NCBI GenBank assembly: GCA_017551785.1
Contig: JAFZKU010000010.1
Span: 3,980-67,979, forward strand
Length of the DNA stretch: 64,000 bases
DNA from: Bacteroidales bacterium
GTDB lineage: Bacteria > Bacteroidota > Bacteroidia > Bacteroidales > UBA932
Reading direction: 5' to 3'
How positions within the stretch are numbered: position 1 is the first letter of the stretch; every line of letters begins with the position of its first letter. The notes below the pieces were generated by a model. It was not told the DNA's origin and ran no database searches. It was given only the letters and a program-made list of their open reading frames with translations. A program made the position numbers and the translations under genes. This document shows positions 6,024-24,455 of the stretch, one piece after another.

Positions 6024-9000
6024 TTACTCGTAGTAACCGTAGTTAATAACAATTTGAGAAATTTGATTGGGAGTACTTCCGGCTGCCATAGTAATCGTTA
6101 CTGAGGTATCACCTGCTCCTGTGGCTGTACTAGATGCAGTCCATGTTTTCTTATCACTTGACATACTACCTATTGAAGCGCTTACTGTTCTATCATTTCT
6201 ACGATAGGTAATTGTAGCGCTAGTCAACTTACATCCATAAAGAGTAGAATTTGCTGCTGATAATACAATCGTACCAGCAGCTGAGGTTGATCCTATCTGC
6301 ATATAATAATTATTACCATTCTTAACACCAGTAGTATTAGTGAAATCTATAGTAATATTGGATGATTCATGGTAGAAACCTCCTTCCGCATTATTATAGT
6401 TCGATGAACTAACGGTAAGCGTGATACTTCCTGTTTTCCATTCTTTGAAATGTAGTGTAGCAGGATTTGATGTGGTGGCATCTACAAGCTCAGAAAGCAT
6501 TGCTGTTGCAGTGACATACTTATATCCATTATTGTAATAACGATACCAGAAATACACAACAGCATCGTCATTAACCAAAGTGAATTTATTCATATTCATT
6601 GTCAATGCACTATTATTCAAGTAAGAGTTCGAAAAATATGAGCCAGTAAAATAATCGTACGATGACGTATTGTTCACATACACATATGTACTATTACCTG
6701 TCGTGAAATTTGAGGGATTGCCTGTAGATACATTTCTGATATAGACCGCATTCTTCGGTACCGTGAAGGAAGTTTCACGATTAATGGTCTTAGAGGCTTC
6801 GTTATAGTTGTCGCTACTGAGAGTGACAGTGCCGGAGCTGAAGCGGGTTGTAGACTTCAGAGATATCGATTGTGAAGTGTTAGTGTTGTTAGGCGTGAAT
6901 GTGTATGTTCCGTCGCCGTTATCAAACATTCTGGAGTCTGTGCCATTGAGTGTCAGGCCGGACATCGCAATCGTAATAGGTTCTATCAGACCGTCTACAT
7001 ATTGGAAACTGAACGTTGTTGTCTTGTTCAGGCCCAGTGGAAGAGTAGAAGGATTGCTGAATGCAAGATTACTGAATGAAGCCCCCTGGATAGTGATAGC
7101 TGAAGATGCCAGAGATGCATAAAGCAGAGGATTATCGGAAAGATTGGCAGTCGAGAGCGTAACCATGCCAGATGAACCGATTGCTCCCGTAGCTTTGAGT
7201 GCAAGGTTTACAGTTGCCATCGTACTTGTAGGGGTACCGGTACCGACATAATAGAGGTAAGTATTACCGCTTGAGTGCACTAGTCCTGTTGTCACCGGAG
7301 TCTCACCATCATCCTGATATTGAGGCGTGAAGCCATTTAGAGTGACTGTCATGATGGGAGGAAGCACCCTATTTGAGGTTGACAGACCCTTTTCCCTTGC
7401 CTGCTCAGCACTTGAACTCTGATTAAGAGCATTGGTCGGATCCCACCATACTGTCGTTGCCGAGCTGTGGGCGCTATCCATTACGAAGGTAAACGTAGTG
7501 TTTCCATTGCGATAGATAGTAGTGGGTACAGTACTCCATGTGAACAACCTCTGAGAATAATTGTAGAACAAGTCGCTGGCCTGTGCATCTTTGAAGAAAC
7601 GGTTCTTAACGTAAATGGTGCTGGCATTCTGGGCTACAGTCGTCTTGAAGTGGCAATCAAAGACTTTCCATGTCTTACCATTTTCCGTAACCGTCCCCAG
7701 CGCATCGTATTGCGCCTGGGTAAGTGTCTTCACGAAATAGTAGGCTGGACCATCATGATTTTCGATCGTCGATGTACCATAGGCAACAGGCATGACATCT
7801 CCATTCGGAGTCAAGCTGTAAGCATCAGCTTCTATCGTAAATTCAAGAGGGAATACTGATCGGGAAAGACCGGTAGGAATCTTTATACGAAGCACTTCCT
7901 GCTCCCCGGCTTTCTCGGCAACATATTTCTGCTGACAGTTCACGATTAGATCCTGTCGCGGAGACGTCTTGATTACTACGTTTCGGCTCATCTCCCTGTT
8001 GTCATAGATACCAGTCACGTGAATAGCCATAGAACGTTCCTGAGTGAAGTAATCATCTTCATCTTTGTATGATTCACTAAGCTCATACTTGATCATACCC
8101 CACTTTTCAATATTAGGATCATTGATCTCCGTCGTTGCTTTTACCCATCTGTTGTTGGAACGGACGAAAGGAACAGCCACATTGTTCTCCTTTACTATCC
8201 ACACCTTATAATTGTTTCCCTCAGTCTTGAATGTCAAAATATTCTGACTTGCTGCTTCTGAAGTAGTGAGTTCAGTAAATGCACCAGTATTGGCATTGTA
8301 AGAACCCACTTTTATTGTAACGAGTTCATTACCTTCCTGGTTGGCAGTATAATTATCATCTGTAATATTGGTAGGGATATAACGGAACATCAAAGAGTCA
8401 GTCTGCGGCTGGACATAGAACTGCTCTGTGAAAGAAGTACCGATGCTTGACTTACCATCGGATATGTTTATAAGGTTCTGGTAGGTAGGGTCTCCAGAAA
8501 CAGTTGCTGAAGATGCCTTGGACGCCTTGTTGATATCCGTTTCACCAGTTCCAGCTTCAATACTAAGCAGATGGACAGTATATGTCTGATTACGGAGCAG
8601 CGGGATCGAAACACCTTCAGTATTCACAATATCCAGTGCATAATATTTATCACCTTCGCTGACAGGATTATTAGGATCTGTGCAATCAAACCTCTCCGCT
8701 TTAATAATCACGCGTGTTGCACGGCGGGAAGCATTAGGAATCGTACGCTCATAGACAAAGAGTACATTCTGTGTCAAATCGGATGAGTTCCACGTCTTCA
8801 TATCAGCGTCCGCGGGAATCTGGACATCCGTATTGCCGACGTAATAATTATATGACTGATCTGAGGGAGAATAACCTTCGTAATTAAACGGGGCGGATGT
8901 GAGAAGAGTATCTGATGCATTATTAGAATCTATCGAATATCTCTGATAATTCATGAAGAAGCTTTCGTAGTATACTCTCGTGGTATTATCCTCATCAGAC

Positions 9001-9752
9001 ACTTCCGGTATTGGTACACCCACAACATTGGATGAATATGGAGCAGAAAGAATCGGCGCTATCACACCTTCTGACGGAGCATATGCCAGGGCGAATTTCT
9101 TAATCACAACTTCCTGCTGACCATTGTAGATTGGAGTAAGGTTTCGCAGATATACACGAGCGAAGTTTCGTACAAGCACAATCGGGTTCGGAAACTGATT
9201 GGTGGTCGCAGTTGTAGGAATCCATACACCTTGGTTATTCTTCTCTGCCCTTATACCGTTAGGCAGTATGATTTTCTGCCAATAACCGTCGTTATATGAT
9301 TCGGAAAGCTGGGAACGAATCTTGGAAAGCACATTCTCTTCATTATCAGAACTACCCGAGATAGGCGGGCTCGTGCGGACAGAAACGGGACAGTTCGCGA
9401 TGAAATGCAAACGCAGACGGCTGTCGCTGACAGTGAAAGATGCTGAGAGCGTATAAATAGTACTACTTGTAGTGTCGTAATTGGCTGTAGCTGACTGGAC
9501 CGTCGCTTTCACCCATTCATTAAAATAGCCGCTGCCGCCGAATACAGCAACATAGAAGCCGTCAGGATCAATGGCCGGAGTATTGCCCATCGCCTTCGTT
9601 TCCTCACTGTCGGTGGGAATCGCCACCTGGAATGAGACTGTCACTTTCTCACCCTCAGGGGTATTGCCAAGCACCATTCCAGGCTCGTCAATAAGGTTGC
9701 AGCCGGCAATCATTGCCAGCGAAGCAAACAATATGTAGATGAATCGTCTCAT
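6024..9752 (-). CDS. Very large (1242 aa) S/T/N-rich surface lipoprotein, last gene of the pilus operon; putative tip or adhesin component
   Basis: Lipoprotein signal MRRFIYILFASLAMIAGC. Its start overlaps the upstream gene stop by 4 nt (9749-9752). No catalytic motifs recognised. The function is inferred from operon context only. Confidence 0.55.
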   Translation of the reverse strand: MRRFIYILFASLAMIAGCNLIDEPGMVLGNTPEGEKVTVSFQVAIPTDSEETKAMGNTPAIDPDGFYVAVFGGSGYFNEWVKATVQSATANYDTTSSTIYTLSASFTVSDSRLRLHFIANCPVSVRTSPPISGSSDNEENVLSKIRSQLSESYNDGYWQKIILPNGIRAEKNNQGVWIPTTATTNQFPNPIVLVRNFARVYLRNLTPIYNGQQEVVIKKFALAYAPSEGVIAPILSAPYSSNVVGVPIPEVSDEDNTTRVYYESFFMNYQRYSIDSNNASDTLLTSAPFNYEGYSPSDQSYNYYVGNTDVQIPADADMKTWNSSDLTQNVLFVYERTIPNASRRATRVIIKAERFDCTDPNNPVSEGDKYYALDIVNTEGVSIPLLRNQTYTVHLLSIEAGTGETDINKASKASSATVSGDPTYQNLINISDGKSSIGTSFTEQFYVQPQTDSLMFRYIPTNITDDNYTANQEGNELVTIKVGSYNANTGAFTELTTSEAASQNILTFKTEGNNYKVWIVKENNVAVPFVRSNNRWVKATTEINDPNIEKWGMIKYELSESYKDEDDYFTQERSMAIHVTGIYDNREMSRNVVIKTSPRQDLIVNCQQKYVAEKAGEQEVLRIKIPTGLSRSVFPLEFTIEADAYSLTPNGDVMPVAYGTSTIENHDGPAYYFVKTLTQAQYDALGTVTENGKTWKVFDCHFKTTVAQNASTIYVKNRFFKDAQASDLFYNYSQRLFTWSTVPTTIYRNGNTTFTFVMDSAHSSATTVWWDPTNALNQSSSAEQAREKGLSTSNRVLPPIMTVTLNGFTPQYQDDGETPVTTGLVHSSGNTYLYYVGTGTPTSTMATVNLALKATGAIGSSGMVTLSTANLSDNPLLYASLASSAITIQGASFSNLAFSNPSTLPLGLNKTTTFSFQYVDGLIEPITIAMSGLTLNGTDSRMFDNGDGTYTFTPNNTNTSQSISLKSTTRFSSGTVTLSSDNYNEASKTINRETSFTVPKNAVYIRNVSTGNPSNFTTGNSTYVYVNNTSSYDYFTGSYFSNSYLNNSALTMNMNKFTLVNDDAVVYFWYRYYNNGYKYVTATAMLSELVDATTSNPATLHFKEWKTGSITLTVSSSNYNNAEGGFYHESSNITIDFTNTTGVKNGNNYYMQIGSTSAAGTIVLSAANSTLYGCKLTSATITYRRNDRTVSASIGSMSSDKKTWTASSTATGAGDTSVTITMAAGSTPNQISQIVINYGYYE

Positions 9753-12145
9753 TGCTTTACAACATTATTACGGGCTTCGTCGCCCCATGTCCATTGTGTC
9801 TTGGTGGCAGTTTCATGAGCAGTATCACTCCAGAACCATTCGTCATATACGCAACGGGTCCAATGCTTGCCGGAGTTATAATTGCTGGCCTGGGAAATTG
9901 TACAAGTTTCTACATTACCATTCGTCAGAGGGAATACAACTCCATTCGCGCTCCAGTATCCACCTGCACTCATCTGACTTTCGGCTGAGAATAGCGCGGG
10001 AATTTTATTCTTTTGCGACAATGTTATCATATAGAAAACTTCTGCTTCCGTAGGAAGTCTCCATCGACCTGCAGGATATCCATCTTCTTGATAAACTGCA
10101 CACCGCCATATGGCATCATTGCGGACCATAGAAGAAGATGTACCAAAGGAAGAAGCGATACGGAAACTTGGCGCAACGAACACTTTGTGGTCATCATCTT
10201 CTGCTGCCGGATAATAATTAGCCATTTTTCGGTCTGTACCTCCTGCGATATCAGCTCCAGTTGCAAAATCACTGGCGGATTTACCAGAAGTGGTGGCAAC
10301 CGGGCTGCTCTGGCGAGGATCGCCGAGAACATATCCGCTCAAAGCACCTTCTGTCGGCAACACAGATGTCTCGACAATATACATATTGAAGTTGGTGTTG
10401 GTACGGTTTGTATTCATACTTGTGTTGGTACGTGTACCGTTGATGAATACATAACCATCTTCAGCAGTGTGTCCTGTTCCGCGGCCAGTTCCCGATGATA
10501 GTATATCTCCAGTATCACTATTATGTTGCGGCCTGATGATAATTGACGGACGCTGCTCTATAATAACATCTGTAAAGTAATTGTCAGCATCATTCAGATG
10601 CCGGATGCGGAAACGCATCGTATAGGGCGCCACATCGAAGTCATTACTTGACATCGTACGGTTCAAAGTATGACTGACTGTAATGGATTCACGCCCACCA
10701 ATTGAAATTGTCCATCCGGATGCACTGACCACAGGGGTCGGAGGGTCATTCTGATAATTCGGACGAACGGCGTTTACGGCAGAAGTATTGAGTGTATTGA
10801 GATAAGGATTATATATGTGCAATTCAGACTCCGTGTAATTAGCTTCATTATTGATATGTGCCGGCTTGTACGCATTGCTTTCATCGACATTGAACCCGAC
10901 CACTTCCACATCATGGCTGGACTGTATGGGTATTGTCAGCACATCTTCATCATAAAGTATATACTCAGTAGTGGGGACATTCAGATATCTGGCCGTAATA
11001 ACCGTCGCGGGGACAGAAGTAACGCTGGTAATCTGCTCAGCAGTAGCATTATCCATCACGCCTTGCCAGTCTGCTATCGCATAATGTATATCCACTTGCG
11101 GAGGATCGGCCTGCTCAGTACCAAGGATCTGCACGTCAATGGAAATGTGATACCAATGGTTGCGCAACAGTTCATTGCCATGGAATGGAATTTTATAGAA
11201 ATACTTCCTTGTAGTATTGCCGTATGTCCACGGGATAATGAGTTTCATGTACGGCTCCATCGCGGAGCTGGTCTCCCAGGCGCAGGGATAGGTGTAGAAG
11301 GGTTTCGCTCCGTCGTGTTCGGTTGAGAAAACCGAAAGGGTTTGAGTTCCGTTCGGACGTTGACGCTGTTTAGTCGTACCTGTGTCATATAGCACTTTGT
11401 CGACATACTGAGAATAGACTACAGGTTCTCCTGAGCCATAGGTAACTGACGCTGTGGCCGGCATGTCTACAGGTTCAGCCCCAAGAGTAGCCTTTCGCAT
11501 GGCATAAACCATATATACCGACATATTGCTGGTATCAGGAGTCCATCCTCCTTCAATATTCGGAGATACCGTAACATCGAAGGTAACTTTTGCTGCCACT
11601 CTGGCAAGACCGATAGTAGCATAAACAGGGGTCTGACCTTGTGCGCTTCCCAGAGTTACTTCCTGCTCTCCAGTCATAACGAAGCTGGCCTGAGGGAGTG
11701 TCTCCCATGTCGGGGCAGGAAGAAGAGAACCCTTGATGTCTGATATTGTCCTGCTGCCTGCCGTTCCGGAGTAACTACCAGAGAAATTGGCCACAACGAA
11801 TACGCCACAATGAGCTCCGGCCGCTATTGTTCCGAATATTCCTTCGATATCGTTGGGGTTGGTCTCAATCTGCACCAGATTACCTGAGCGGATAGCACCA
11901 AGCACTTCCTTGGTAATCTGACCCGTAGTCTCATCGTAGAAGAAAATATCTATGGTATTGGAAACCAGATTCTCGTTCAAAGCGCTGTCTCCATCAAGGG
12001 TGGCCTTGGTCTGAGAATCCTCCAGATAGAGATTGAGTACAATGCCTCCCTTGGCTGTATCGATGAAACCAGTTTCAGGGACACAACCGGAAAGCAGCAA
12101 GGCTACCAATGTGAGTAATAATATTCTAGTTCGCATCGAGTACAA
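9749..12145 (-). CDS. 798-aa fimbrillin-related lipoprotein with a C-terminal WRLPT-motif (DUF1566/FISUMP-like) domain; putative pilus tip adhesin
   Basis: Lipoprotein signal MRTRILLLTLVALLLSGC. N-terminal fimbrillin-like segment (IGLARVAAKVTFDV). The C-terminus has GYPAGRWRLPTEAEVFYM. It overlaps the upstream gene by 20 nt. Confidence 0.55.
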   Translation of the reverse strand: MYSMRTRILLLTLVALLLSGCVPETGFIDTAKGGIVLNLYLEDSQTKATLDGDSALNENLVSNTIDIFFYDETTGQITKEVLGAIRSGNLVQIETNPNDIEGIFGTIAAGAHCGVFVVANFSGSYSGTAGSRTISDIKGSLLPAPTWETLPQASFVMTGEQEVTLGSAQGQTPVYATIGLARVAAKVTFDVTVSPNIEGGWTPDTSNMSVYMVYAMRKATLGAEPVDMPATASVTYGSGEPVVYSQYVDKVLYDTGTTKQRQRPNGTQTLSVFSTEHDGAKPFYTYPCAWETSSAMEPYMKLIIPWTYGNTTRKYFYKIPFHGNELLRNHWYHISIDVQILGTEQADPPQVDIHYAIADWQGVMDNATAEQITSVTSVPATVITARYLNVPTTEYILYDEDVLTIPIQSSHDVEVVGFNVDESNAYKPAHINNEANYTESELHIYNPYLNTLNTSAVNAVRPNYQNDPPTPVVSASGWTISIGGRESITVSHTLNRTMSSNDFDVAPYTMRFRIRHLNDADNYFTDVIIEQRPSIIIRPQHNSDTGDILSSGTGRGTGHTAEDGYVFINGTRTNTSMNTNRTNTNFNMYIVETSVLPTEGALSGYVLGDPRQSSPVATTSGKSASDFATGADIAGGTDRKMANYYPAAEDDDHKVFVAPSFRIASSFGTSSSMVRNDAIWRCAVYQEDGYPAGRWRLPTEAEVFYMITLSQKNKIPALFSAESQMSAGGYWSANGVVFPLTNGNVETCTISQASNYNSGKHWTRCVYDEWFWSDTAHETATKTQWTWGDEARNNVVKQ

Positions 12146-13751
12146 GTCTTATATTTTTTCTATTGAATTCTGAGTCGGCATCGTGCCATTCCCCGTTAAA
12201 GAAGATTGCTACATTGAAGAACAGGGTCTGGGTCGAGCTCGGTGAGAGATCGGGATTCACACTCACGGTAAACTCCGCCTTGCCGTTTTCAGTATTGACG
12301 TCGATGTCTCCGGAGGTGGGTTCAATGACGAAGTATTGTGCCGCGGACATAGGATATGCAGTCACCTGCCAGCGGCCTGATGTGGGCGCTTCGATGTAGA
12401 AACGGCCTTGGAGGACTTCGTTGCGGGTGGTGAATCGCATGGTCTTGGCAGACCATTCGTCGGTTGTAGGTTCCACTATGTATTGTTCTGTGGTAGGGTT
12501 GTAGCGGTAGAAGGCAAGCACACCATCCTTGAAAGTACCACTTCGCGCCGAAATAGAGCGGTTTGAATAGTCCCAGTCGTATTCCTCATACTCCCAAGGA
12601 AGCACTCTGGTGTATATGTCGAGAGAACTCTTCTTGAACTGGAGGGTGAACTCATACTTGACTCCGGCATCCATACCGGTCGAATTGGTTTTGAAGAAGT
12701 TCTGTTTGTTCAGCACGACATGGGCAGTCAGTTCGTCGGAATCGCTGATGACTGTTTCGTTATTTACTTCCCTTATTGTGCGGACCTTGTAGACAATTTC
12801 CAATGACGCCGGTGTGGTCGCATCCGAGAGTTCCGCATAGGTCTGGGGCCACATCAGAAGGAAGTTCTGCATAAGGATATTCTCTATTTTCGCATCCTTG
12901 TTGACAAACTCGTATCCATAATCTTCTCCGCTATAAGTATAAAGCGGAACATCTACAGACGACAGATTAGCATTCTGGACAGTAGGAGTCGCTGTCTTGA
13001 AGTCGATAGTGGCGCTGCGGCGGTTCTTCATGCCGGTGAGGGTTACCGATTTGATTACAACTGAGTTGCCGGAAGTGTTCATCACCGTCAACTTGAATGC
13101 TGAGAACAGGTGTTTCAGCTGCATGGGCACTACTGAGCCGGGAACACGGGTAGCAGCATCGATGCTGACGACATCCGAATAAGAGAAGTCGAACTGAGGA
13201 GTATAACCGCTCACAACCATATCCTGCGAAGGGCCCATGGTTGTCGTCGGGATAGAAAGGACGCGGGTAGATTCGTCAAAATAAGGCTGTCCGTTGCCGA
13301 ATAGCTGGGTTATATCCATACTCGGGATATAATTACCATCAGCTGCCAGCCATCCGAAGAAGCTGTGAACGCCGCTCTTAGTCCACGGATAAGTAGTGGC
13401 AGGGTCGCAGTAAGGCCAATAAGTAGTTGTCTGCGAATCAAAGGCGATCTTGTTAGTGAAGTACTTCACCGTCTGGCTTGAAGTGACCGGACTACCATTG
13501 ATCTGGCCGTCGAAACCGGAGATATAGTCATATACCTTGATCTGCGTACCGTTCTCCGAAAGGTTGTTGGAATTGATAAGAGCCTTCGTCGAAAGGATCG
13601 ACGGCGCAAACACGATATCCTCCGCCGGCTCTTTCTCCAGAGGGTCCGTGGGGTCCAGTGTCTCCACACGGGTGCAACTCTGCAGCAGCGCCAGCAGACA
13701 AACTGTCAGCCCGATCGCTAAGCTTCTAATATATATAGGTATCTTTTTCAT
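12126..13751 (-). CDS. 541-aa fimbrillin-family lipoprotein with an extra C-terminal domain
   Basis: The ORF track starts at 13901, but the lipoprotein signal MKKIPIYIRSLAIGLTVCLLALLQSC begins at the ATG at 13751. It shares the paralog motif (VPMQLKHLFSAFKLTV). Confidence 0.6.
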   Translation of the reverse strand: MKKIPIYIRSLAIGLTVCLLALLQSCTRVETLDPTDPLEKEPAEDIVFAPSILSTKALINSNNLSENGTQIKVYDYISGFDGQINGSPVTSSQTVKYFTNKIAFDSQTTTYWPYCDPATTYPWTKSGVHSFFGWLAADGNYIPSMDITQLFGNGQPYFDESTRVLSIPTTTMGPSQDMVVSGYTPQFDFSYSDVVSIDAATRVPGSVVPMQLKHLFSAFKLTVMNTSGNSVVIKSVTLTGMKNRRSATIDFKTATPTVQNANLSSVDVPLYTYSGEDYGYEFVNKDAKIENILMQNFLLMWPQTYAELSDATTPASLEIVYKVRTIREVNNETVISDSDELTAHVVLNKQNFFKTNSTGMDAGVKYEFTLQFKKSSLDIYTRVLPWEYEEYDWDYSNRSISARSGTFKDGVLAFYRYNPTTEQYIVEPTTDEWSAKTMRFTTRNEVLQGRFYIEAPTSGRWQVTAYPMSAAQYFVIEPTSGDIDVNTENGKAEFTVSVNPDLSPSSTQTLFFNVAIFFNGEWHDADSEFNRKNIRLVLDAN

Positions 13752-13762
13752 ATTTGTGACCT

Positions 13763-13782
13763 GGAGCGGTATCACCCGCTCC
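13763..13782 (-). promoter_or_regulatory. Intercistronic stem-loop followed on the transcript by GGTCACAAA
   Basis: GGAGCGG (13763-13769) / CCGCTCC (13776-13782) is a perfect 7-bp stem with a 6-nt loop. The adjacent plus-strand TTTGTGACC is also found at two other intergenic sites of the operon. Confidence 0.4.
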
Positions 13783-13803
13783 AAGCCTATAAGGTTCTTC
13801 AAC

Positions 13804-14964: not shown

Positions 14965-14999
14965 TAGTGTGTTGATTTTTAGGTTGTTATATTAATAAT

Positions 15000-16124: not shown

Positions 16125-16143
16125 GATTGGGGGTCAGAATTTA

Positions 16144-17385
16144 TTAGTCGTTTTCGTTAAGATTAACATCTGAAGAATAAACATCGGCCCATGCAACAAC
16201 TGCAGGGTCGAAGGTAACGGTCTGAGTTGCATACGGGTTGATGGAAATTCTATAGGTAATATTCTGGTTTTCCTTCCATTCAGTAATTGTTCCGTTGTTG
16301 AGACGAACGGTAGAAGTCACAGATTCAGTTGCCCAGTAGCCCTCATCGGTCTCAGTGATTGTTGAGGGAACGCTGGTGTAGTGAAGCTTGATGGTGTATG
16401 CAACTACGAGCACCTGATCGGTGGTAGTAGCGACATTCACCGGCTTATTGTTTGCATCGAGAGTTGTGAGGAGAGCCTGCGGAAGAAGGATACGGCTCTT
16501 GCCGAGGGCTGTATAATTGTCTGTAGCAAGAACATTGGCTTCAACAGTACCGTCAATCATTTCAAGAGAAAGGGTGCTGGAGGGAGCGAAGTCATAATCG
16601 GCAACGCTGGTGTGGTCTGAAGCCCAGCTGGGAGTGGCCGGAGTTGTGGTGGCCGGAGTCTGGGTGAATGAGCCTTTATTGTCGATATTCTTGATATCCA
16701 CATCGGTAACATCGATCACGATTCTGTCGACGTTGGGGTTCTTGCGGCCGATGGCGCGGAATGCGAAATTGATCTGGCAGAGGGCGTGGTTGAAGATGGT
16801 GGGAACGCCTTTATATCCATGGTCAGTAGTATTAGTTAACTGGTCATCAGTAACTAAAGTACCATCTGAATTATAATCCTTTGAGCAATTGGCGGCAAGA
16901 TTGGCATACATCAGGTCAACGTTGGTATTGTCGACAATAGTATAATTATTGAAAAGGAAACCTTTGTTAACATTATATTCTGGAACTCCAGAGAAACCAT
17001 CGGTAGCTGTGTTATCTCCAGTTGTATAAGGAGAATAAGAAGCAAAGGTAATCTTACCGGTTTTTGTCCAGTAATAAGTAGTGTTAGGGGCCCATTTTGC
17101 AACCTCAGTGTCAGTGGCGTTAGAGTGAATAATCTGCTCATTATTCATGAAGACATATGTCTGGTCAGCAGCTATACCAGTCCAATCACCGCTTGTCCAC
17201 CATGCGAAAGTTCCGAAAGGAACACCAACGGGATACTCAAGACCTGCTGTGGCCTTGGTCTGCTGAAGATGGTTGATGACACTGAAAGAGATGGGAGTTT
17301 CAACAGTGCTCTCCACTGTCTCGATCTTGGTGCAGGCTGCCAAGACTGTCAAGGCAGCAGCTGCGAGGATGAAATACTTTTTCAT
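16144..17385 (-). CDS. Fimbrillin-family lipoprotein, paralog 5
   Basis: Signal MKKYFILAAAALTVLAAC. Motifs ISFSVINHLQQTKA, PTIFNHALCQINFAF, VTFDPAVVAWAD. Confidence 0.75.
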   Translation of the reverse strand: MKKYFILAAAALTVLAACTKIETVESTVETPISFSVINHLQQTKATAGLEYPVGVPFGTFAWWTSGDWTGIAADQTYVFMNNEQIIHSNATDTEVAKWAPNTTYYWTKTGKITFASYSPYTTGDNTATDGFSGVPEYNVNKGFLFNNYTIVDNTNVDLMYANLAANCSKDYNSDGTLVTDDQLTNTTDHGYKGVPTIFNHALCQINFAFRAIGRKNPNVDRIVIDVTDVDIKNIDNKGSFTQTPATTTPATPSWASDHTSVADYDFAPSSTLSLEMIDGTVEANVLATDNYTALGKSRILLPQALLTTLDANNKPVNVATTTDQVLVVAYTIKLHYTSVPSTITETDEGYWATESVTSTVRLNNGTITEWKENQNITYRISINPYATQTVTFDPAVVAWADVYSSDVNLNEND

Positions 17386-17437
17386 TCTGTTTTGATTTTT
17401 TAGTTGTTATTGTTTGTTCATTTTACTTTCACTTTGT

Positions 17438-17467
17438 GACCGGAGGCAGGGTCAGCCGCCCCCGGCC
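17438..17467 (-). promoter_or_regulatory. Intercistronic stem-loop plus GGTCACAAA box
   Basis: CCGGAGGC (17440-17447) / GCCCCCGG (17458-17465) with one mismatch and a 10-nt loop, preceded on the plus strand by TTTGTGAC. Homologous to the element at 18666-18689. Confidence 0.4.
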
Positions 17468-17473
17468 TAAATA

Positions 17474-18607
17474 TTATTCTGATACAGGAACATTGATGTC
17501 TCTAGCAGTTTCGCTACTCCATGACTCAACTGCAGGATCGAAGCGTACTTTCTGTGTAACAGGATCGATAATCACGTTATAAGTAATTTTCGTATTCATG
17601 TTCCAGCTTGCAAGAGCTGTGCTGACAAGTTGATCCAATTTTTTAGTTACGGTAAGATTCTCTTCCATAAATGCGACATCCCCATGCTTGGCAGTCACCT
17701 TGTAATTGAGAGTGAAGTCAATCGCATTTGTAAGCTGGGGCATCATAGTACGTTCATCAAGGAGAGATACAGCAGTGGTTTCATGCGTATCAACATCCAT
17801 AGTCATTGTAGGAGTGAGGAAACTAACTGTCTCGGTAGTACTCTCACCGGTTGCTGCCACCCACCTGTAAGCAGTAGCATAAGCACTTTCGGCTTCCGGA
17901 GCATACTGGACTGTACCTTTTGAACCAGGATCTGCGGCTTTCATAACAAGAGTACCAGTCTTTTTTACGACTATGTTAGAGAGTTTCGTATCGGCATTAA
18001 GAATCTCAACAACCCATGTAGTATTTGCAGACTCATTAGCCGCAGCTGTAGCAAGTTTTACAGTGAAATTCACACGGCTCAGAAGGTGGCGGAACATGGT
18101 CGGAACTCCTTCTGTAATTCCATCCTTTCCATATGCATCGCCATTCGTACTACTGGTCACATTTGCAGTATAACGGTATGCTGCATCTGCGAGCAAGTAG
18201 TTATCAGCGCTTGTAATAGTTTTGTTAGAATAAGTAACTGTTGCTCCATTATCAGAGTATGTAGGAGTACCAGTACCTGCATATGAGAAGAAGTTAACAT
18301 AACCTGTCTTCGGCCAGAAATAATCGTCATCGGCACCCCAGAAGTCAGTTTTGTATTTTATGAGTTCATTGTTCATAAAAGTCTGAGCTGATCCCGATGA
18401 AGGGATATACCATGCATACGTGTTAAACTGATTGTAACCTTCTTTAAGGAGACCACCATCCTGATAATCAGCCTTGGTTTGTACACTGTAATTAGCAACC
18501 TCAAAAGAGATTTTCTTGAGAGTGTCAGGAGTGTTTGCAACTTCCATCTTGGTGCAGGCGGTGAGCGCTACCAGCGCGGCGGCTGCGAGTACGAAATACT
18601 TTTTCAT
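17474..18607 (-). CDS. Fimbrillin-family lipoprotein, paralog 4
   Basis: Signal MKKYFVLAAAALVALTAC. Motifs ISFEVANYSVQTKA, PTMFRHLLSRVNFTV, VRFDPAVESW. Confidence 0.75.
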   Translation of the reverse strand: MKKYFVLAAAALVALTACTKMEVANTPDTLKKISFEVANYSVQTKADYQDGGLLKEGYNQFNTYAWYIPSSGSAQTFMNNELIKYKTDFWGADDDYFWPKTGYVNFFSYAGTGTPTYSDNGATVTYSNKTITSADNYLLADAAYRYTANVTSSTNGDAYGKDGITEGVPTMFRHLLSRVNFTVKLATAAANESANTTWVVEILNADTKLSNIVVKKTGTLVMKAADPGSKGTVQYAPEAESAYATAYRWVAATGESTTETVSFLTPTMTMDVDTHETTAVSLLDERTMMPQLTNAIDFTLNYKVTAKHGDVAFMEENLTVTKKLDQLVSTALASWNMNTKITYNVIIDPVTQKVRFDPAVESWSSETARDINVPVSE

Positions 18608-18665
18608 AGTCTTTTGATTTTTTAGTTTGTTATTGTTTGTTACTTATTGATTTTCAATTTGTGAC

Positions 18666-18689
18666 CCGGGGCAGGATCAGCCGCCCCGG
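18666..18689 (-). promoter_or_regulatory. Intercistronic stem-loop plus GGTCACAAA box
   Basis: CCGGGGC (18666-18672) / GCCCCGG (18683-18689) is a perfect 7-bp stem with loop AGGATCAGCC, preceded on the plus strand by TTTGTGAC. Confidence 0.4.
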
Positions 18690-18700
18690 ACCTATGTTGC

Positions 18701-19960
18701 TTATTCTGCAGGTTTGGGAACCTCTACATCATAATTAGCTGTATCCCAGTCAACAACTGCAGGATCGAAGAGGATAGTATCAGTTGTAGGATCAATGATA
18801 ATGTTGTAAATAATCCTCTTGTTCATCTCCCAGTTAGCAGGAGCATTTGCGATCTTGTTCAGTTGCAGACCATTAGCAGTATATGCGTCATCTGCTGTAG
18901 TTGCGAAGTCCGTAACCGGGAAAACTTCAGTACCAAGGTTGGTGCAACCAGAATGTCCTTCAGCATTAAACTGAGTCTGAGTACCATACCATTTCGTAAT
19001 AGAGATGGTGAAAGTGAGTTTCATATCATTAGTAACAGCCTGAGGTCTAACAGCGATGAAGCCATCGGGCATGTAATTGGTAGCGTTGAGCGCTGAATAT
19101 GCAGCAGTGGTGAGGACCTCGCTTCCAGTTGCTGCTGCAGTAGTGAACCAATCATTTGGAGTATTGACAAGGGTAGCAGAAGTAGCATTTGCCCAAATTG
19201 CAGGACTTGGAACAGTCCATGCAGTAGTTGTTTTTGAACTCTCATATGTTTTAGTAAGGCTCAAAGTGCCATTCTTATGAACTTGGGGAAGTGTAAAGGC
19301 TGAAAGTTTCACCTCAAAGAATGTATAATAGCCACTATTCTTACTGTCTGCTTTTTTATCTTTTTCTTCTTTGATCTTCGCCTGGAATTTAACCTGAGCA
19401 AGGGCATGATGGAAGAGTGTAGGAACACCACTTGATACACCATCAATTTGGTTACGCTCTTGGTTAGCAGTCTGATGCCATGCAATGTCAGCGAAGAGAA
19501 TATCTGATTTGTAGTCAACAGTACGGTTTGTCCACACAAGTGTAGGTGCAGAGCTACCATTATAAGTGAGGGTCGGTGCTGCGGCAGTGCCGTCGAAATC
19601 ATACCATGAGAAGAAGTCGATGTTGCTGCTAGGTGATTTGGGCCAATAGTAATCTTTGCTAGGCTCCCACTCAGTGCTGGTGTCATTCCATGTGATAGTT
19701 TCAGGGTTAGGGTTGAAGAAATCTCCGAAGCTGCCACCATTCGGGTGGATGAATGCACTACTCTTGAAAGCTATTGTAGTTGCTTCCATGTTCGTAAGTT
19801 CGGTAAGGAAGCTTGAACCATCAGCTTTGGTCTGAGACATGTAGTTGGCTACCTCAAAGCCAATTTTAACATCGGGAGTTGCGGTTTCGTCGAGCTCCAT
19901 CTTGGTGCAGGCGGTGAGCGCTACGAGCGCGGCGGCTGCGAGAATGAAATACTTTTTCAT
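18701..19960 (-). CDS. Fimbrillin-family lipoprotein, paralog 3
   Basis: The ORF track extends to 20053, but the lipoprotein signal MKKYFILAAAALVALTAC starts at 19960. Motifs IGFEVANYMSQTKA, PTLFHHALAQVKFQA, ILFDPAVVDWD. Confidence 0.75.
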   Translation of the reverse strand: MKKYFILAAAALVALTACTKMELDETATPDVKIGFEVANYMSQTKADGSSFLTELTNMEATTIAFKSSAFIHPNGGSFGDFFNPNPETITWNDTSTEWEPSKDYYWPKSPSSNIDFFSWYDFDGTAAAPTLTYNGSSAPTLVWTNRTVDYKSDILFADIAWHQTANQERNQIDGVSSGVPTLFHHALAQVKFQAKIKEEKDKKADSKNSGYYTFFEVKLSAFTLPQVHKNGTLSLTKTYESSKTTTAWTVPSPAIWANATSATLVNTPNDWFTTAAATGSEVLTTAAYSALNATNYMPDGFIAVRPQAVTNDMKLTFTISITKWYGTQTQFNAEGHSGCTNLGTEVFPVTDFATTADDAYTANGLQLNKIANAPANWEMNKRIIYNIIIDPTTDTILFDPAVVDWDTANYDVEVPKPAE

Positions 19961-19994
19961 GATCTTTAGTTTTTTGATTGTTATATGATTATTA

Positions 19995-21191
19995 TTAATT
20001 TCCATTGTTCTGGTTAGGGTTCGGATACACAGCGCTGTCTGTAAGCCAGTCAACCATCGCAGGATCGATCTTGATTGTAGTGGTTTCGGGGTTGATTGTT
20101 ATCGTGTAAGTAATCTTCTTGTTCATATCCCAGTTGGCGATATGATCAGCTATAGTGCTCAGGTTGATATCAGCATGAATCTTTTCCTGGGCGTACTGCT
20201 CGTTATTGAACTTAGTCACGATTTTATAGTCAAATGAAAGAATCATGTCTGATGTAACCGCCTGGGGCATCACTGTCTGCATCTCAAGGACATCGACTGC
20301 GGTTGTTTGGAGTGGTGCATCTACATTCCCCATTGCAATAGAAGCAGCATTTCCTACAGGAGTCCATGAGCCGCTCCAAGCTTTAGTTGTAGCATCAGAT
20401 TGCGGCTCAGGATCATTGGCCGGGTCACCATTAGTAAGAGCAAGTGTTCCCTGGTTATACACACCCGCTAAAGAAATATTGCTCAGAGTAACTTCCCATT
20501 TAGTTTTTCCAAGACCTTCGCCTCCGGTAACATTGGCTTTAGTTGTATCAGCGACCGCTGCCTTGATGCAAAGTTTTGCAAGAGCATGGTGGAACATCAT
20601 AGGAACACCTTTGGTGACACCGCCATCTTTGTGATATTCTGCATTGGGGGTAGCCTTGAAATGCCAGGCTTCGTCCGCAAAAAGAAGATTGTCATCGGTG
20701 AGGACGGTATAGTTCTCCCACTTAAGAGACTCCTCTGTAGCTTCTGTGGGTGCAGTGCCTTTCTTGTCATACCAGCCGACAAAATTGATGTAGCTCCTGC
20801 TTCCCTTCGGCCAATAATAATCATGGCTCGGAGCCCAGTAAGCGACGAGAGCAGAATTAGTGGTTATACTGTTAGAGCCATCATATGCGGAAATGGTTTC
20901 ACCGTTTGCACCGAACATATCCTGAGTCGTGAAATACGAACCGACGCTGTCAGCATGCAGAAACGCCTTGCATTTGAAGCTTGCAAACTCTCTCATAATC
21001 GACCCAGCAGCAGGAACGGTATCATTGTCAGCCTTTGTCTGCGGCCTGTATGTAGCTGTCTCGAAAGTAATCTTTCTCGGAGGGGCAGTGTCTTCCAATT
21101 TCGTGCAAGCTGCCAGCGTCATCATCGCGATGACTGCGATGATGAAACACTTTTTCGTCGTTGAATTGTTCTTTGTCATTATCTTTTTCAT
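19995..21191 (-). CDS. Fimbrillin-family lipoprotein, paralog 2
   Basis: Signal ...CFIIAVIAMMTLAAC. Motifs ITFETATYRPQTKA, PMMFHHALAKLCIKA, IKIDPAMVDW. Confidence 0.75.
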   Translation of the reverse strand: MKKIMTKNNSTTKKCFIIAVIAMMTLAACTKLEDTAPPRKITFETATYRPQTKADNDTVPAAGSIMREFASFKCKAFLHADSVGSYFTTQDMFGANGETISAYDGSNSITTNSALVAYWAPSHDYYWPKGSRSYINFVGWYDKKGTAPTEATEESLKWENYTVLTDDNLLFADEAWHFKATPNAEYHKDGGVTKGVPMMFHHALAKLCIKAAVADTTKANVTGGEGLGKTKWEVTLSNISLAGVYNQGTLALTNGDPANDPEPQSDATTKAWSGSWTPVGNAASIAMGNVDAPLQTTAVDVLEMQTVMPQAVTSDMILSFDYKIVTKFNNEQYAQEKIHADINLSTIADHIANWDMNKKITYTITINPETTTIKIDPAMVDWLTDSAVYPNPNQNNGN

Positions 21192-21203
21192 TTTTCTATT
21201 TTT

Positions 21204-22304
21204 CTACTCAAGCGTTACGCCGCCTCCGCCGATGTTTGCATCCCAGTTCTGGAGGGTAGGCTGAATCTGTATCAGATCGGTTGAAAGATCGAATACAAGG
21301 GTATATATAATCCTGTGTCCCATCTCCCATGCAGGGATGACAGACACGAGTTCGTTAAGTTTCTCTGAAAGTGTTATGGTTTCTTCGCTGAACGCCGTCT
21401 CGCTGTTACCGTAGTAGGTGCTTATCTTGTAGGTGACGGTAAGTACCATGTCGTCAGTAACCGTCTGCGGCAATACTGTTCTAAGTGAAATCAGATCGGT
21501 TGATGACGTAGTAAGAGTGGTGGCACTTGACATTGCCATCGGGGCTGCAGTGCCGCTGGGAGTCCAAACATTATTTGTGGCAACCCAAGGCACGGTGGCT
21601 CTCGTAGTCGAGCCGGCGTTAGTCAGCGATACTGAACCGGTTGAATACACATTTGACAGTGAGAGGCTGTTGACAGTCACTGTCCTGGTCATGCCATTGC
21701 TGCTGGCATTGGTCTCATATGCCCTGAAAGCAACCTGAGCCAGGGCGTGGCGGAACAGCATCGGAACACCCGCAGCGACAGGGTCGCCGGTATACAGTGA
21801 ATTACTTGTATTCTCTTTATAATGCCAAGCCTCTTCAGCGACAAGCAGGTTGTCGGTACTCAGGACAGTGTAGTCGGTCCAAGAGAGGCTGGTCTCAGTG
21901 GCAGTGGCAGGTGTAGTGCCTTTGGCATCATACCAGGCGATGAAGTTCAAATAGCTGTCGCTGCCCTTCGGCCAGAAGAAGTCGTGCGAAGGAGCCCAGT
22001 AAGAAACGCTGGCCTCGGTGGTGGCTGCTGCGCCGGCGCTGGTGTAAGGAGTGATGAGCTGGCCGGCAGCGCCGAAGAAATCTTGAGTCTGATTTGCTGC
22101 TGTGTAACCCTCGGCATGCAGGAACGCTTTCGCGGTGAAAGAGGTGAATTCGCTCCAAATAGAAGAGTTGGCCTTTGTCTGCTGTGCATAGCTGGCAACC
22201 TGGAAGGTCACCTTGCGGTCCGGGTTGTACTCCTCCATATCCACCTTGGTGCAGGCGGTCAGAGCTACAAGAGCCGCAATTGCTATGTACAACAATTTCT
22301 TCAT
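21204..22304 (-). CDS. Fimbrillin-family lipoprotein, paralog 1
   Basis: Signal MKKLLYIAIAALVALTAC. Motifs VTFQVASYAQQTKA, PMLFRHALAQVAFRA, IQIQPTLQNWD. Confidence 0.75.
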   Translation of the reverse strand: MKKLLYIAIAALVALTACTKVDMEEYNPDRKVTFQVASYAQQTKANSSIWSEFTSFTAKAFLHAEGYTAANQTQDFFGAAGQLITPYTSAGAAATTEASVSYWAPSHDFFWPKGSDSYLNFIAWYDAKGTTPATATETSLSWTDYTVLSTDNLLVAEEAWHYKENTSNSLYTGDPVAAGVPMLFRHALAQVAFRAYETNASSNGMTRTVTVNSLSLSNVYSTGSVSLTNAGSTTRATVPWVATNNVWTPSGTAAPMAMSSATTLTTSSTDLISLRTVLPQTVTDDMVLTVTYKISTYYGNSETAFSEETITLSEKLNELVSVIPAWEMGHRIIYTLVFDLSTDLIQIQPTLQNWDANIGGGGVTLE

Positions 22305-22310
22305 CAGTTA

Positions 22311-23387
22311 CTAAATCGCTATCTCTCCATGTTCTTCCTCCCAATCATCCACGCTCGGCTGGAAACCGCCGTTGCTAGGATTCTCGTTGGGCAGAGGGTT
22401 CTCAATAACCCAGGTTTCATTTACAATCAGCCAGTGGCGCTCGATGGCATCTTCGGTGAGGAAGATCTGGTCGAGGCTGGTCTGGTATTGCTGGAGGTTG
22501 CCGGCCACGTCGATCACATTGAAGGTCACGATAAGCTCGGACTCAACCTCAGGTATCTTTCCAAATGTGTTGAACACAGCGCAGAGGACATCTTTGTTTT
22601 CTGTCTCCAGCCTCGGGTCCTGGCTCTTATTAAGGTCGAAGGCAACGGCGATCGAAGGATCTTCGGTGCGTTCGTCGAGACCGATGTGGTTAGACGGCGA
22701 CAGACCTGAGATGACTGCCATTGCAGAAGAAGCGTACTGCATTCCTTCTACATGGATTTGCAGGTAATATGAATCAACCACTGTGTGGGCCTCTGTGTGG
22801 ATCACAATTATAGAGTCGTGAGGAGACACCCTGAGGTTCTGCTCGCGGGCAACCAGCAGGTGGTCGGGCTCATAACGCATGTCGAGATTCATAAGGTCTT
22901 CGAAGCTGCTCCCCTCGTCGCCGGCCTTGGTGCGGCCTGAATAGCGTGCCTTCTGTGCTGCCGGAATCTCTTCGGTGTAGGCCAGGATCTCATTCTCGTC
23001 AGACTCGCCGGTAACCTTGGTCTCGGGAGTATCGAAGTTGTAGACGAGGATGTCGTAGTTACCGTAAGCAATGTTCAGGGAGCCTGTAAGGATCTGTGAA
23101 CCGTCTTCGGCGTATGACTTACCCTGGATGAAGCTCTGGGTCAACAGCTTCTTGGTCACAGGGTCATATACGAGTACGCGCATCACGTCGGTGTTGACGT
23201 CGGGAGTCGGTATATACTCGTTGTAGACGTCAACCTTGACGTTTGCTACTGCCTGGACGTTGACCTGAACTTTGATCTCTACGTACTCTGAAGGCTCCTC
23301 GAGGGGACGTCTCTCGCAGGCGACAAGAGTCATCAGCAGCGCGGTCACGCAGCAAATAAGCTTGAATATGTTTTTATTTCCTGTCAT
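22311..23387 (-). CDS. Pilus-operon lipoprotein, Mfa2/FimB-anchor-like or DUF5119-like
   Basis: Lipoprotein signal ...ALLMTLVAC. It is second in the operon, after the DUF3575 gene, as in other Bacteroidales fimbrial loci. It overlaps the upstream stop by 4 nt. The family assignment comes from context and a weak resemblance remembered from other loci. Confidence 0.5.
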   Translation of the reverse strand: MTGNKNIFKLICCVTALLMTLVACERRPLEEPSEYVEIKVQVNVQAVANVKVDVYNEYIPTPDVNTDVMRVLVYDPVTKKLLTQSFIQGKSYAEDGSQILTGSLNIAYGNYDILVYNFDTPETKVTGESDENEILAYTEEIPAAQKARYSGRTKAGDEGSSFEDLMNLDMRYEPDHLLVAREQNLRVSPHDSIIVIHTEAHTVVDSYYLQIHVEGMQYASSAMAVISGLSPSNHIGLDERTEDPSIAVAFDLNKSQDPRLETENKDVLCAVFNTFGKIPEVESELIVTFNVIDVAGNLQQYQTSLDQIFLTEDAIERHWLIVNETWVIENPLPNENPSNGGFQPSVDDWEEEHGEIAI

Positions 23388-24166
23388 CTGCGGTTATTGT
23401 CATTGTTAGCAAAAACTGGGATCACCAGGCTTATCTTGGCCTTGGTGGGTCCGAAATATGAAACGCGGCCGACATTGTATTTGTCACGGATCAACACTGA
23501 GTAGTCGTCGGTCGGGAGGTAGTGCCTGAAGTCGGTCTGCAGATATCCGGCTGCGATCGAGAATTCAAGTCTAGCATTGGTGGGCTTGCCGAAGAGGTCT
23601 TTGATCTGGTGTACATAACCAAAGCTGACGCCTGCTGAATAATATTCGCCCTGATAGTTGAATTTGACATCGAGCTGGAAATCGTACTTGGCAGACATCA
23701 CATAGACTCCACCAAACCAGCCCTGCATCTTGTCCTTGCTGTAGCGATCCCACTTGTTGAGCCAGAAGCGAAACTCGGGACCGAGCTCTACCATCTGGAG
23801 GCAATACTTGTTGCCAGTCTCCCACCAGGGGAATACATATTCGAGCATCAGGGAGAATCTGTTGAACATGGGAACTTCAGCTTCGATGTTGATGGCGCTC
23901 GCCACGTCGTAAAGAATATTTTTCTTGACTGCGAAAATTAACCGAACATCCTTGTCTGAGCTGGTGGTATATTCGTGTGTAGCGGGTGCGGGCTCGCCCA
24001 CGCGCGTATAAAAAAAGGTTTCGTCGGCAGCTGATGAAGAAGCAGCCTGCGCATAAACCGGGAACGAGAGGAGAAGAGACACTGAGAACAGGACTGCAAA
24101 AAAGAGCATCCTGCATACCGGGAACATAGGTTCGATTTTCTTCAGTGCTATAGAGTTTGTATTCAT
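23384..24166 (-). CDS. DUF3575-family outer-membrane beta-barrel protein (first gene of the pilus operon)
   Basis: Signal peptide ending VYAQA. The stretch FAVKKNILYDVASAINIEAEVPMFNRFSLMLEYVFPWW...ELGPEFRFWL...GWFGGVYVMSAKYDFQ matches the DUF3575 pattern as I remember it. Confidence 0.7.
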   Translation of the reverse strand: MNTNSIALKKIEPMFPVCRMLFFAVLFSVSLLLSFPVYAQAASSSAADETFFYTRVGEPAPATHEYTTSSDKDVRLIFAVKKNILYDVASAINIEAEVPMFNRFSLMLEYVFPWWETGNKYCLQMVELGPEFRFWLNKWDRYSKDKMQGWFGGVYVMSAKYDFQLDVKFNYQGEYYSAGVSFGYVHQIKDLFGKPTNARLEFSIAAGYLQTDFRHYLPTDDYSVLIRDKYNVGRVSYFGPTKAKISLVIPVFANNDNNRR

Positions 24167-24176
24167 GAATCGGATG

Positions 24177-24184
24177 CAAAAGTA
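24177..24184 (-). promoter_or_regulatory. Candidate -7 box (TACTTTTG on the minus strand) for the pilus operon
   Basis: Plus-strand CAAAAGTA is TAnnTTTG on the minus strand. It lies only 11 nt from the first ATG (24166), so it fits better if translation starts at the internal MFPVCRM (24127). Confidence 0.3.
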
Positions 24185-24455
24185 GATATCAAAAATTTAC
24201 CATTTAGCAATTATAAAAATTAGGTTGTAAGGATTTAAACAATATCATCCTCATATCCGCCGTTAACTATAAATTTTATAATAATAGGTAAGAGCATATT
24301 TTTGTCGGTGTATTTTTGATGTTTTTGCTCATATAGGCACGAAGCGTGCCAAAAATCACAGGAAAAACACGACTTTTCTGATTAATGACAAAATTTCTGA
24401 TTTCAAAATCGGAAATTTTCCGTTTGAAAAATTATTGCAATTTCAAATAAAGTGT

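Follow-up and report, generated by a model that had tools for sequence, protein, structure and literature searches.

Why should a single pilus operon encode seven tandem pilin paralogs? The question is raised by a 12-gene locus on contig JAFZKU010000010.1 (assembly GCA_017551785.1) of a Bacteroidales bacterium. The stretch of 64,000 nucleotides (nt) that was analysed is called the window below, all positions refer to it, and the genes are designated g01 to g12 in their direction of transcription. Judged from its sequence, the locus is a real type V pilus operon of the fim type in which the shaft module has been multiplied. We have high confidence that it follows type V logic, with lipoprotein export, cleavage at Lys or Arg, and C-terminal strand exchange, and with g02 as the anchor and g10–g12 as the tip. 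For the seven paralogs (g03–g09), we lean towards a reading in which they are specialised, non-equivalent subunits of one fibre (major shaft pilins together with adaptor or minor pilins).

The locus consists of 12 intact, consecutive open reading frames (ORFs), all on the minus strand and running from 24166 down to 6024. Their products have 260, 358, 366, 398, 419, 377, 413, 374, 386, 541, 798, and 1242 amino acids (aa), and their order is a DUF3575 barrel, a DUF5119/Mfa2-like anchor, seven fimbrillins, a divergent pilin, a FimD equivalog, and a FimE_C protein. Adjacent genes are separated by 6–93 nt or show short overlaps (4 nt at g01/g02 and at g11/g12; 11–20 nt at g10/g11, depending on the start of g11). 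Starts which give a signal peptide were preferred, so that g05 is taken to have 419 aa (not 450) and g10 to have 541 aa (not 591), the longer ORFs beginning at upstream TTG codons. On identical metagenome contigs, gene callers start g11 at the ATG at 12136, which results in a protein of 795 aa. In all of g02–g12, the signal peptide ends with [ASG]C, as in lipoproteins. None of the intergenic gaps within the operon contains a terminator-like site. The only strong intergenic terminator-like structure is a hairpin at the operon end (5969–6003, minus strand), which has a 14-bp stem and a U-rich tail, is located 21 nt past the g12 stop, and has a fold z of −7.4. Because the internal gaps are devoid of such sites and one strong terminator follows g12, the operon is considered a single transcription unit. 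A preliminary description of this DNA had reported 12 tightly spaced minus-strand genes in this order and had assigned them to a type V pilus. The ORF list and the Pfam matches agree with the former, and the latter is borne out by the matches to DUF3575, DUF5119, and Mfa_like_1, by the fold of g07, and by the FimD and FimE_C assignments.

The shaft module comprises g03 (21204–22304, 366 aa), g04 (19995–21191, 398 aa), g05 (18701–19960, 419 aa), g06 (17474–18607, 377 aa), g07 (16144–17385, 413 aa), g08 (15000–16124, 374 aa, with a GTG start), and g09 (13804–14964, 386 aa). In a Pfam scan, Mfa_like_1 was matched by g04 (2.4e-11) and g08 (3e-21); the other five paralogs had no match, and none of the seven matched P_gingi_FimA. 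Membership of g03, g05, g06, and g09 is based on blastp and alignment, that of g07 additionally on a structure model. All 21 of the 21 blastp pairs are significant (22%–42% identity, the highest value being that of g04 to g03; near full length; E 6e-97 to 8e-10), which identifies the seven as true paralogs, beyond chance similarity. Their alignment contains 26 invariant columns. The motifs which the preliminary description had listed as common to the seven are all found in it: the lipobox Cys, (I/V)xF...T(K/R)(A/V), GVPxxFxH, and (F/I)(D/Q)P(A/T)(V/L/M)xxW. When the paralogs are aligned with their database relatives, which are labelled "fimbrillin family protein" at NCBI, the lipobox Cys is invariant among the 94 family members. 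In the numbering of g07, T43 is invariant in all seven window paralogs, and T43 and K44 are found in at least 90% of the 94 sequences. P394 and W399 are invariant in 94 of 94, and the donor-strand motif which contains them is among the best-conserved segments.

A sequence search against PDB returned no meaningful match for the paralog profiles. For modelling with AlphaFold2 (AF2), g07 was chosen because it diverges most among the paralogs and has no Pfam match, and the 94-sequence alignment was supplied. The resulting model is almost wholly beta (predicted local distance difference test score, pLDDT, 75; predicted template modelling score, pTM, 0.75). Foldseek against PDB gave 37 matches with E <0.005, all of them Bacteroidales fimbrial or "cell adhesion" proteins with a probability of at least 0.82. 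The list is headed by BVU_2522 (4QB7, E 1.9e-11); next come BF1861, FimA (6JZK, 6KMF), Mfa2, Mfa3, Mfa1, and Mfa4; 4QB7 is BvuFim1C, a shaft ("stalk") pilin (bioRxiv 10.1101/2024.11.15.621889). The only low-confidence internal segment of the model (residues 41–48) is the loop with QQTKA. At the C-terminus, strands are predicted at 389–398 and 407–409, and the last 14 residues (400–413) are disordered. This is what would be expected if the loop were open to a protease and the tail were a mobile donor strand. The structural check thus confirmed the pilin fold for the modelled g07; it extends to the other members of g03–g09 by homology and to g10 by profile–profile comparison with hhalign. Altogether, these data support a pilin fold for the seven paralogs, together with characters expected of subunits that polymerise, be it as shaft or as adaptor.

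Published rules on type V pilins state that shaft and anchor pilins have C-terminal donor strands and tip pilins have no free ones, that cleavage of polymerising pilins takes place at an Arg of the loop past the N-terminal anchor strand, and that an anchor pilin without cleavage site stays lipidated, upon which growth stops (PMC13655056). In the window, the T-(K/R)-(A/V) motif past the lipobox is present in all of g03–g12 and missing from g02. Its distance from the lipobox Cys is 23–24 residues in g03–g09, about 29 in g10, 26 in g11, and 35 in g12; the motif also occurs in the orthologs from related loci. A C-terminal xFDPAVxxW with a short beta-prone tail, the putative donor strand, is found in g03–g09 and in g02, and the equivalent segment is internal in g10 and g11. 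Because the distribution of both motifs matches the published rules (PMC13655056), g02 fits the role of the anchor, g03–g09 that of polymerisation-competent pilins, and g10–g12 that of tip proteins.

The predicted anchor g02 (22311–23387, 358 aa) belongs to the Mfa2/FimB class of anchor/terminator pilin lipoproteins. It matches Pfam DUF5119 (3.9e-16) and, by sequence, the solved pilin 5CAG (E 1.2e-6); a homolog in a related locus (L018) additionally has a weak match to Pfam Mfa2. It has a lipobox, and its C-terminus (FQPSVDDW...GEIAI) carries a donor-type motif as found in the seven paralogs. The operon is opened by g01 (23384–24166, 260 aa), an outer-membrane beta-barrel (Pfam DUF3575, 2.3e-27) with an ordinary signal peptide and no lipobox. 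Homologs of g01 are the first operon gene in related loci and often carry OmpA-family peptidoglycan-binding domains. In loci with five paralogs, the first gene codes for 640–825 aa and combines such domains with the DUF3575 barrel (L008:954–3428, L013:1442–3400, and equivalents in L009, L010, L012, and L027–L033); the window and L007 have the DUF3575 barrel alone (about 260–270 aa). This suggests that the DUF3575 barrel is an OmpA-like base or tether by which the base of the pilus may be tied to the cell wall.

The three distal genes had been described as large proteins without recognisable catalytic motifs and as candidate adhesins. They are indeed adhesin candidates of the tip type without catalytic domains, but they are not orphans, as the trio consists of an eighth pilin, a FimD equivalog, and a FimE_C protein. 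We read g10–g12 as a tip module of the Fim type, in which g10 stands at the place of FimC. The divergent pilin g10 (12126–13751, 541 aa) has no Pfam match, its C-terminal domain included, and no match to a FimC-specific model in NCBIfam or Pfam; PDB sequence searches gave no meaningful match for any of g10, g11, and g12. With hhalign (98.2% probability, E 3.6e-14, 309 columns), the g10 family and that of the paralogs align from the lipobox of g10 to its VLPWEYEEY, which corresponds to FDPAVxxW, and an extra C-terminal domain of about 150 aa follows. Many g10 homologs match Mfa_like_1 (PF13149). The FimD-type tip adhesin g11 (9749–12136, 795 aa; the ORF extends to a TTG at 12145) matches the NCBIfam equivalog model NF052322 FimD_tip_adhes with 317 bits (cutoff 170, E 3e-94) over positions 6–664 of 664. 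Near its C-terminus, there is a weak match to Lcl_C, a C-type-lectin-like domain (E 0.0035, under the gathering score), and its homolog in L018 matches Pfam FimD_3rd. An Mfa5-type VWA domain was not matched in g10–g12. A second g10-FimD-FimE module occurs in L015, which is from the same metagenome-assembled genome (MAG) as L016; no fimbrillin array was recognised by hidden Markov models (HMMs) in the 10 kb upstream of it (E <1e-3).

The FimE-type giant tip protein g12 (6024–9752, 1242 aa) has FimE_C (PF27397) in the precomputed Pfam annotation, as have nearly all of its 187 relatives; it has only the pre-pilin leader in common with the paralogs. Modelled with AF2 (pLDDT 88.5), the mature protein forms an all-beta string of beta-sandwich modules. 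For the whole model, Foldseek returned only generic immunoglobulin-like arrays (alpha-2-macroglobulin, invasin, mastigoneme) with a template modelling score of about 0.1. This result indicates a predicted fibrillar beta-sandwich array and is silent on the ligand. Residues 1 to about 1000 are conserved and the last 240 or so are variable: a strain variant is 93% identical over residues 1–1122 and then has an unrelated end, and close variants, with 89%–93% identity upstream, differ in how they end. The C-terminal domain (residues ~1004–1242; 6027–6743) has 15 clusters of relatives among 1.84 billion representative proteins, and in every full-length protein it is found at the C-terminal end, with a similar protein size. 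We consider the last 240 or so residues of g12 a swappable module and a candidate ligand-binding head.

Whether an array of this length is exceptional can be judged from related loci. These were collected with the g10 family as single-copy anchor, taking the 57 closest sequences with 10-kb flanks. Ten loci came from GTDB species representatives, three were obtained by exact look-up, and 16 came from metagenomes; their ORFs were scored with HMMs from the window locus. The ten GTDB representatives are MAGs of uncultured Bacteroidales, which come mostly from ruminants (rumen or gut of goat, sheep, yak, red deer, and water deer). The architecture of DUF3575, DUF5119, n fimbrillins, and g10-like, FimD-like, and FimE-like proteins is found in every locus long enough to judge (about 20 loci). 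The value of n is 3–4 in L018 and 4 in L031. It is most commonly 5, in ten fetched loci (L007, L008, L009, L010, L012, L013, L027, L028, L030, and L033); L021 and L026, also with n = 5, represent the contig stretches of L007 and L008 a second time. The window has 7 paralogs, and flank-limited counts give at least 8 in L022 and L023 and at least 9 in L016, L017, and L019. The description of the locus as unusually expanded holds against the characterised loci of Porphyromonas gingivalis, but not within this ruminant-gut clade, where seven is mid-range (4 to at least 9). Because L019 and the window have a common downstream flank (a 192-aa protein and a sigma factor of the extracytoplasmic function, ECF, type), paralog number differs at one chromosomal position. 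As a separate observation, a PIN-domain toxin gene with a small upstream partner gene directly follows the FimE-like gene in L019 (17298–17989) and L017 (17467–18158).

A distance tree resolves positional ortholog groups, in which paralogs are numbered by their place in the array (g03 is p1 of the window). Window p5 corresponds to L007 p4 and L016 p5, window p7 to L007 p5 and L016 p9, window p4 (g06) to L007 p3, and window p6 to L016 p7/p8; window p1–p3 form one clade with L007 p1–p2. Positional orthologs are 35%–57% identical across genomes, the upper value being that of g07 to L007 p4. They retain position-specific tails: first-position paralogs end in ...V(T/V)(L/V)E (g03 in ...GGGGVTLE) and g08-type paralogs in ...TTSIQ(L/F) (g08 itself in ...LTTSIQL). 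Last-position paralogs, g09 among them, have the cleavage-motif variant T-K-V in place of T-K-A and a tail ...TNI(D/E).... Identical copies of the window locus, with all genes intact, are present on at least six independent metagenome contigs from different samples. Because of these intact copies and of the order and tails conserved across loci, the paralogs are considered old, ordered, and maintained. The preliminary description had named pseudogenes in related strains as an observation that would speak against it; phylogeny and comparative genomics gave positional ortholog groups and intact orthologs in distant genomes instead.

A further feature of the array is a small hairpin, found by folding the three longest gaps. 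The element has 35 nt, with a 12-bp GC-rich stem, a CUGAYM loop, and a GGUCACAAA tail, and begins 6–16 nt past stop codons. There are three copies in the window, all on the minus strand, compared to none expected, and none elsewhere in the 64 kb. Copy 1 (18658–18692), with a CUGAUC loop, is located 8 nt past the g05 stop (z −3.9, 64 bits), copy 2 (17433–17467) is 6 nt past the g06 stop (60.5 bits), and copy 3 (13753–13787, z −4.6) follows the g09 stop at the boundary between shaft and tip modules. On the coding strand of sister-locus gaps, there are four copies each in L017, L022, and L023, three in L019, and one in L020, and in these five loci one copy is always directly before the g10 homolog. 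Over 16 copies, 98.4% of cells are paired (38%–62% in slid-partner controls), and 4 of the 12 pairs show compensatory changes. With a covariance model, 483 kb of loci yielded 19 full-length copies, all of them on the coding strand within these operons, and a partial match in L007, where the gaps have a related hairpin with identical loop and different tail. Neither the hairpin nor any other part of the operon has a match in Rfam.

From sequence data, we infer cleavage, polymerisation, co-assembly of the paralogs in one fibre, and a function of the hairpins, in a sequence of steps as follows. The pilins g02–g12 would be exported as lipoproteins, and a Lys/Arg-specific surface protease would cut the exposed T-K/R loop of g03–g12; the 64-kb window contains no candidate for such a maturation protease. 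Cleavage would free the C-terminal donor strand and open the groove, and protease-mediated strand exchange would link the subunits, beginning at the tip. The products of g10, g11 (FimD), and g12 (FimE) would form the distal adhesive tip complex. The products of g03–g09 would follow as non-equivalent subunits, one or a few being the major shaft pilins and the others adaptor or minor pilins, like the minor subunits of chaperone-usher pili, which are ordered. With its donor strand and without a cleavage motif, g02 would cap growth and anchor the fibre in the outer membrane, with the DUF3575 barrel at the pilus base. The hairpins would split the transcript into g01–g05, g06, g07–g09, and g10–g12 and may set the subunit ratios, with the tip genes lowest.

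The specialisation of the seven subunits is proposed because order, orthology, and paralog-specific tails are kept over deep divergence and because the operon is a single, hairpin-partitioned transcription unit. In its strongest form, this would be an ordered heteropolymeric pilus, in which at least seven pilins occupy defined zones via paralog-specific C-terminal strands and the ratios are set by the hairpins; we regard this form as tentative, with the odds against it. If true, it would be the first composite-shaft type V pilus, and evolution would have arrived at a functional counterpart of the P pilus by way of an unrelated assembly system.

Several observations weigh against a fibre of specialised subunits and speak for the main rival, in which the paralogs are interchangeable shaft subunits, i.e., redundant variants on a shared anchor and tip which form homopolymers or random mixtures and provide antigenic or adhesive diversity. 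In all type V shafts characterised to date, a single pilin forms a homopolymer (PMC13655056; bioRxiv 10.64898/2026.07.16.738973), so that a heteropolymer is without precedent among type V pili. Between the seven paralogs, there is hardly any difference in the anchor strand and in the xFDPAVxxW donor motif, which argues for promiscuous rather than ordered pairing. The range from 4 to at least 9 paralogs among relatives would be more readily explained if subunits were dispensable or interchangeable, and recent duplications are seen in the g03/g04/g05 clade. The GC content at third codon positions (GC3) is a mosaic, ranging within the operon from 0.38 to 0.66 (0.38–0.44 in g05, g06, g11, and g12; 0.60–0.66 in g01–g03, g08, and g10) compared to 0.67–0.81 in the housekeeping genes of the window. 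This suggests exchange of cassettes, with lower-GC relatives as a possible source. Type V loci of Bacteroides have been described as modular and apparently redundant (bioRxiv 10.1101/2024.11.15.621889). As to the hairpin, its conserved form is confined to one subclade, and a different, larger hairpin occurs in the five-paralog loci L008 and L013. Because it has no U-tract and is followed by A-rich leader sequence, it is read as something other than a full terminator. It is probably a 3′-end stabiliser, a processing site, or a partial attenuator; it could equally be a recombination-prone repeat which mediates unequal exchange between cassettes.

On the other side, positional orthologs, tails, and cleavage-motif variants are in constant order at 35%–57% identity, which points to long-term non-redundant roles. 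All genes form one unit, and no diversity-generating retroelement, integrase, invertible promoter, shufflon, or recombinase that could select a variant is attached to the operon or located beside the array. We consider interchangeable subunits the less likely of the two readings but a rival to be taken seriously, and prefer the reading as specialised subunits. Of the three alternatives raised in the preliminary description, an undescribed surface assembly has become disfavoured, and the choice between a heteropolymeric fibre and alternative shafts has been narrowed.

It is improbable that no filament is formed at all and that the pilin-fold lipoproteins stay monomeric or oligomeric on the outer membrane or on vesicles, for example for binding of glycans or particles. 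For some structures in the fold superfamily, the annotation goes no further than "cell adhesion" or binding of polysaccharides (e.g., 3GF8), but the locus has a complete type V parts list with canonical logic (an anchor without cleavage motif, shaft-class pilins, FimD, and FimE_C), and the donor-strand motif, with P394 and W399 invariant, ranks among the best-conserved parts of the family. That the array consists of decayed, non-functional duplicates or of a collapsed or expanded repeat is hardly credible: the source appears to be metagenome-derived and misassembly of tandem paralogs can occur, but all 12 ORFs are intact, paralogs with 22%–42% identity are too divergent to confuse an assembler, and the same arrangement recurs on the independent contigs, with intact orthologs in distant genomes.

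The region upstream of g01 (24167–24451, minus strand for the operon) serves as promoter/leader region for both the operon and a divergent regulator gene, which begins 285 nt upstream. It contains the best sigma-70-like match of the minus strand (24239–24210), a TAnnTTTG-like motif, TACTTTTG, directly upstream of the g01 ATG (read by eye), and a palindrome of 14 + 14 nt (24390–24419). The regulator (24452–25720, plus strand) is of the AraC family, with helix-turn-helix (HTH) matches at residues 336–413 (Pfam HTH_18, 8e-14; HTH_AraC, 1.5e-7). Its N-terminal 270 or so residues are strongly hydrophobic, with many helices, and form a polytopic membrane domain, so that the HTH domain may be joined to a sensor embedded in the membrane. 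Its position alone makes the protein a candidate for regulating the operon. The related loci yielded no homolog, within upstream flanks of only 1–3 kb. A phase-variable promoter was considered and rejected: inverted repeats upstream of g01 are short, imperfect, and AT-rich, and the nearest tyrosine recombinase is 5.4 kb away, past housekeeping genes. This recombinase (Phage_integrase, 4e-34; 29556–30590, minus strand) adjoins a 325-aa ORF without Pfam match (31018–31995, minus strand), and no link between it and the pilus locus was found.

The GC content of the operon is 0.470 compared to 0.544 in the rest of the window. Recent horizontal acquisition was dropped as an explanation, as sister loci are equal in GC to their own flanks and mobility genes are absent beside the window locus. 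The rest of the window is ordinary chromosome and codes for Obg, a lipoate ligase, methylmalonyl-CoA mutase, a topoisomerase of the ParE/GyrB type, Der, and LytB, and further for an ATP-binding cassette (ABC) transporter, a GH43 protein, and the ECF sigma factor. A 1001-aa ORF without Pfam match (56363–59368, minus strand), which is followed by a 442-aa ORF with a marginal match, is unrelated to the pilus locus.

The locus thus represents a clade of abundant, uncultured ruminant-gut Bacteroidales which carry 4 to at least 9 shaft-class pilins in fixed order in one operon. The ordering rules for accessory subunits of type V pili have been described as unclear (PMC13655056), and the array is a natural system in which it can be asked whether strand-exchange specificity may encode subunit order and how stoichiometry is set. 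Attachment in the rumen, be it to feed particles, to host mucus, or to other microbes, may be determined by the variable head of the FimE-like protein and by the lectin-like end of the FimD-like one, which are both candidates for this role. No catalogue entry covers the intercistronic hairpin, a small conserved element of RNA or DNA.

Among known systems, the locus is closest in its logic to the Fim pilus of P. gingivalis (fimA–fimE). Both have lipoprotein pilins with an Arg/Lys cleavage loop, C-terminal donor strands (predicted ones in the window), an anchor without cleavage motif, and a three-gene distal module, in which g11 is a FimD equivalog and g12 has FimE_C. In contrast to the single fimA, the window has seven shaft-class genes (eight with g10), and these match Mfa_like_1 or nothing rather than P_gingi_FimA. 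The anchor gene precedes the shaft genes, and an extra DUF3575 gene opens the operon. Sizes also differ, FimE and FimD of P. gingivalis having 550 and 670 aa (PMC9409006) compared to 1242 and 795 aa in the window. With the Mfa pilus (mfa1–mfa5), the locus has in common the Mfa-like Pfam family of the shaft paralogs and the DUF5119/Mfa2 class of the anchor. In that system, Mfa3 is an accessory pilin with donor strands which joins the shaft to the tip (PMC13655056). Unlike the Mfa locus, the operon has no match to a VWA tip of the Mfa5 type but a Fim-type tip, and has far more shaft-class genes.

Pilus genes are numerous in gut Bacteroides, with 93 genes in 22 operons in B. fragilis 638R, and the number of pilins per operon is variable (bioRxiv 10.1101/2024.11.15.621889). 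The best structural match of g07 is a shaft pilin from this group of Bacteroides and Phocaeicola; their operons have about four genes on average compared to 12 in the window, where in addition the array is syntenic across the clade. In P. distasonis, fim-like clusters may hold extra fimA-like genes (PMC9409006). A non-homologous analogy is provided by the chaperone-usher P and type 1 pili of Escherichia coli (PapA/K/E/F/G/H), where one operon codes for a major rod and ordered minor or adaptor subunits. By analogy with the proposed type V fibre, those subunits have one fold and donor-strand chemistry in common. Their fold is unrelated, however, and assembly depends on a chaperone, an usher, and N-terminal donor strands rather than on lipoprotein export, proteolysis, and C-terminal strands. 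In pap, RNA structures within the operon contribute to differential subunit expression. With the precedents in gut Bacteroides and P. distasonis, an operon with several pilins is of a known kind. The novelty lies in a conserved, syntenic architecture with 4 to at least 9 shaft-class paralogs in an uncultured ruminant-gut clade, together with position-specific tails and a family of intercistronic hairpins.

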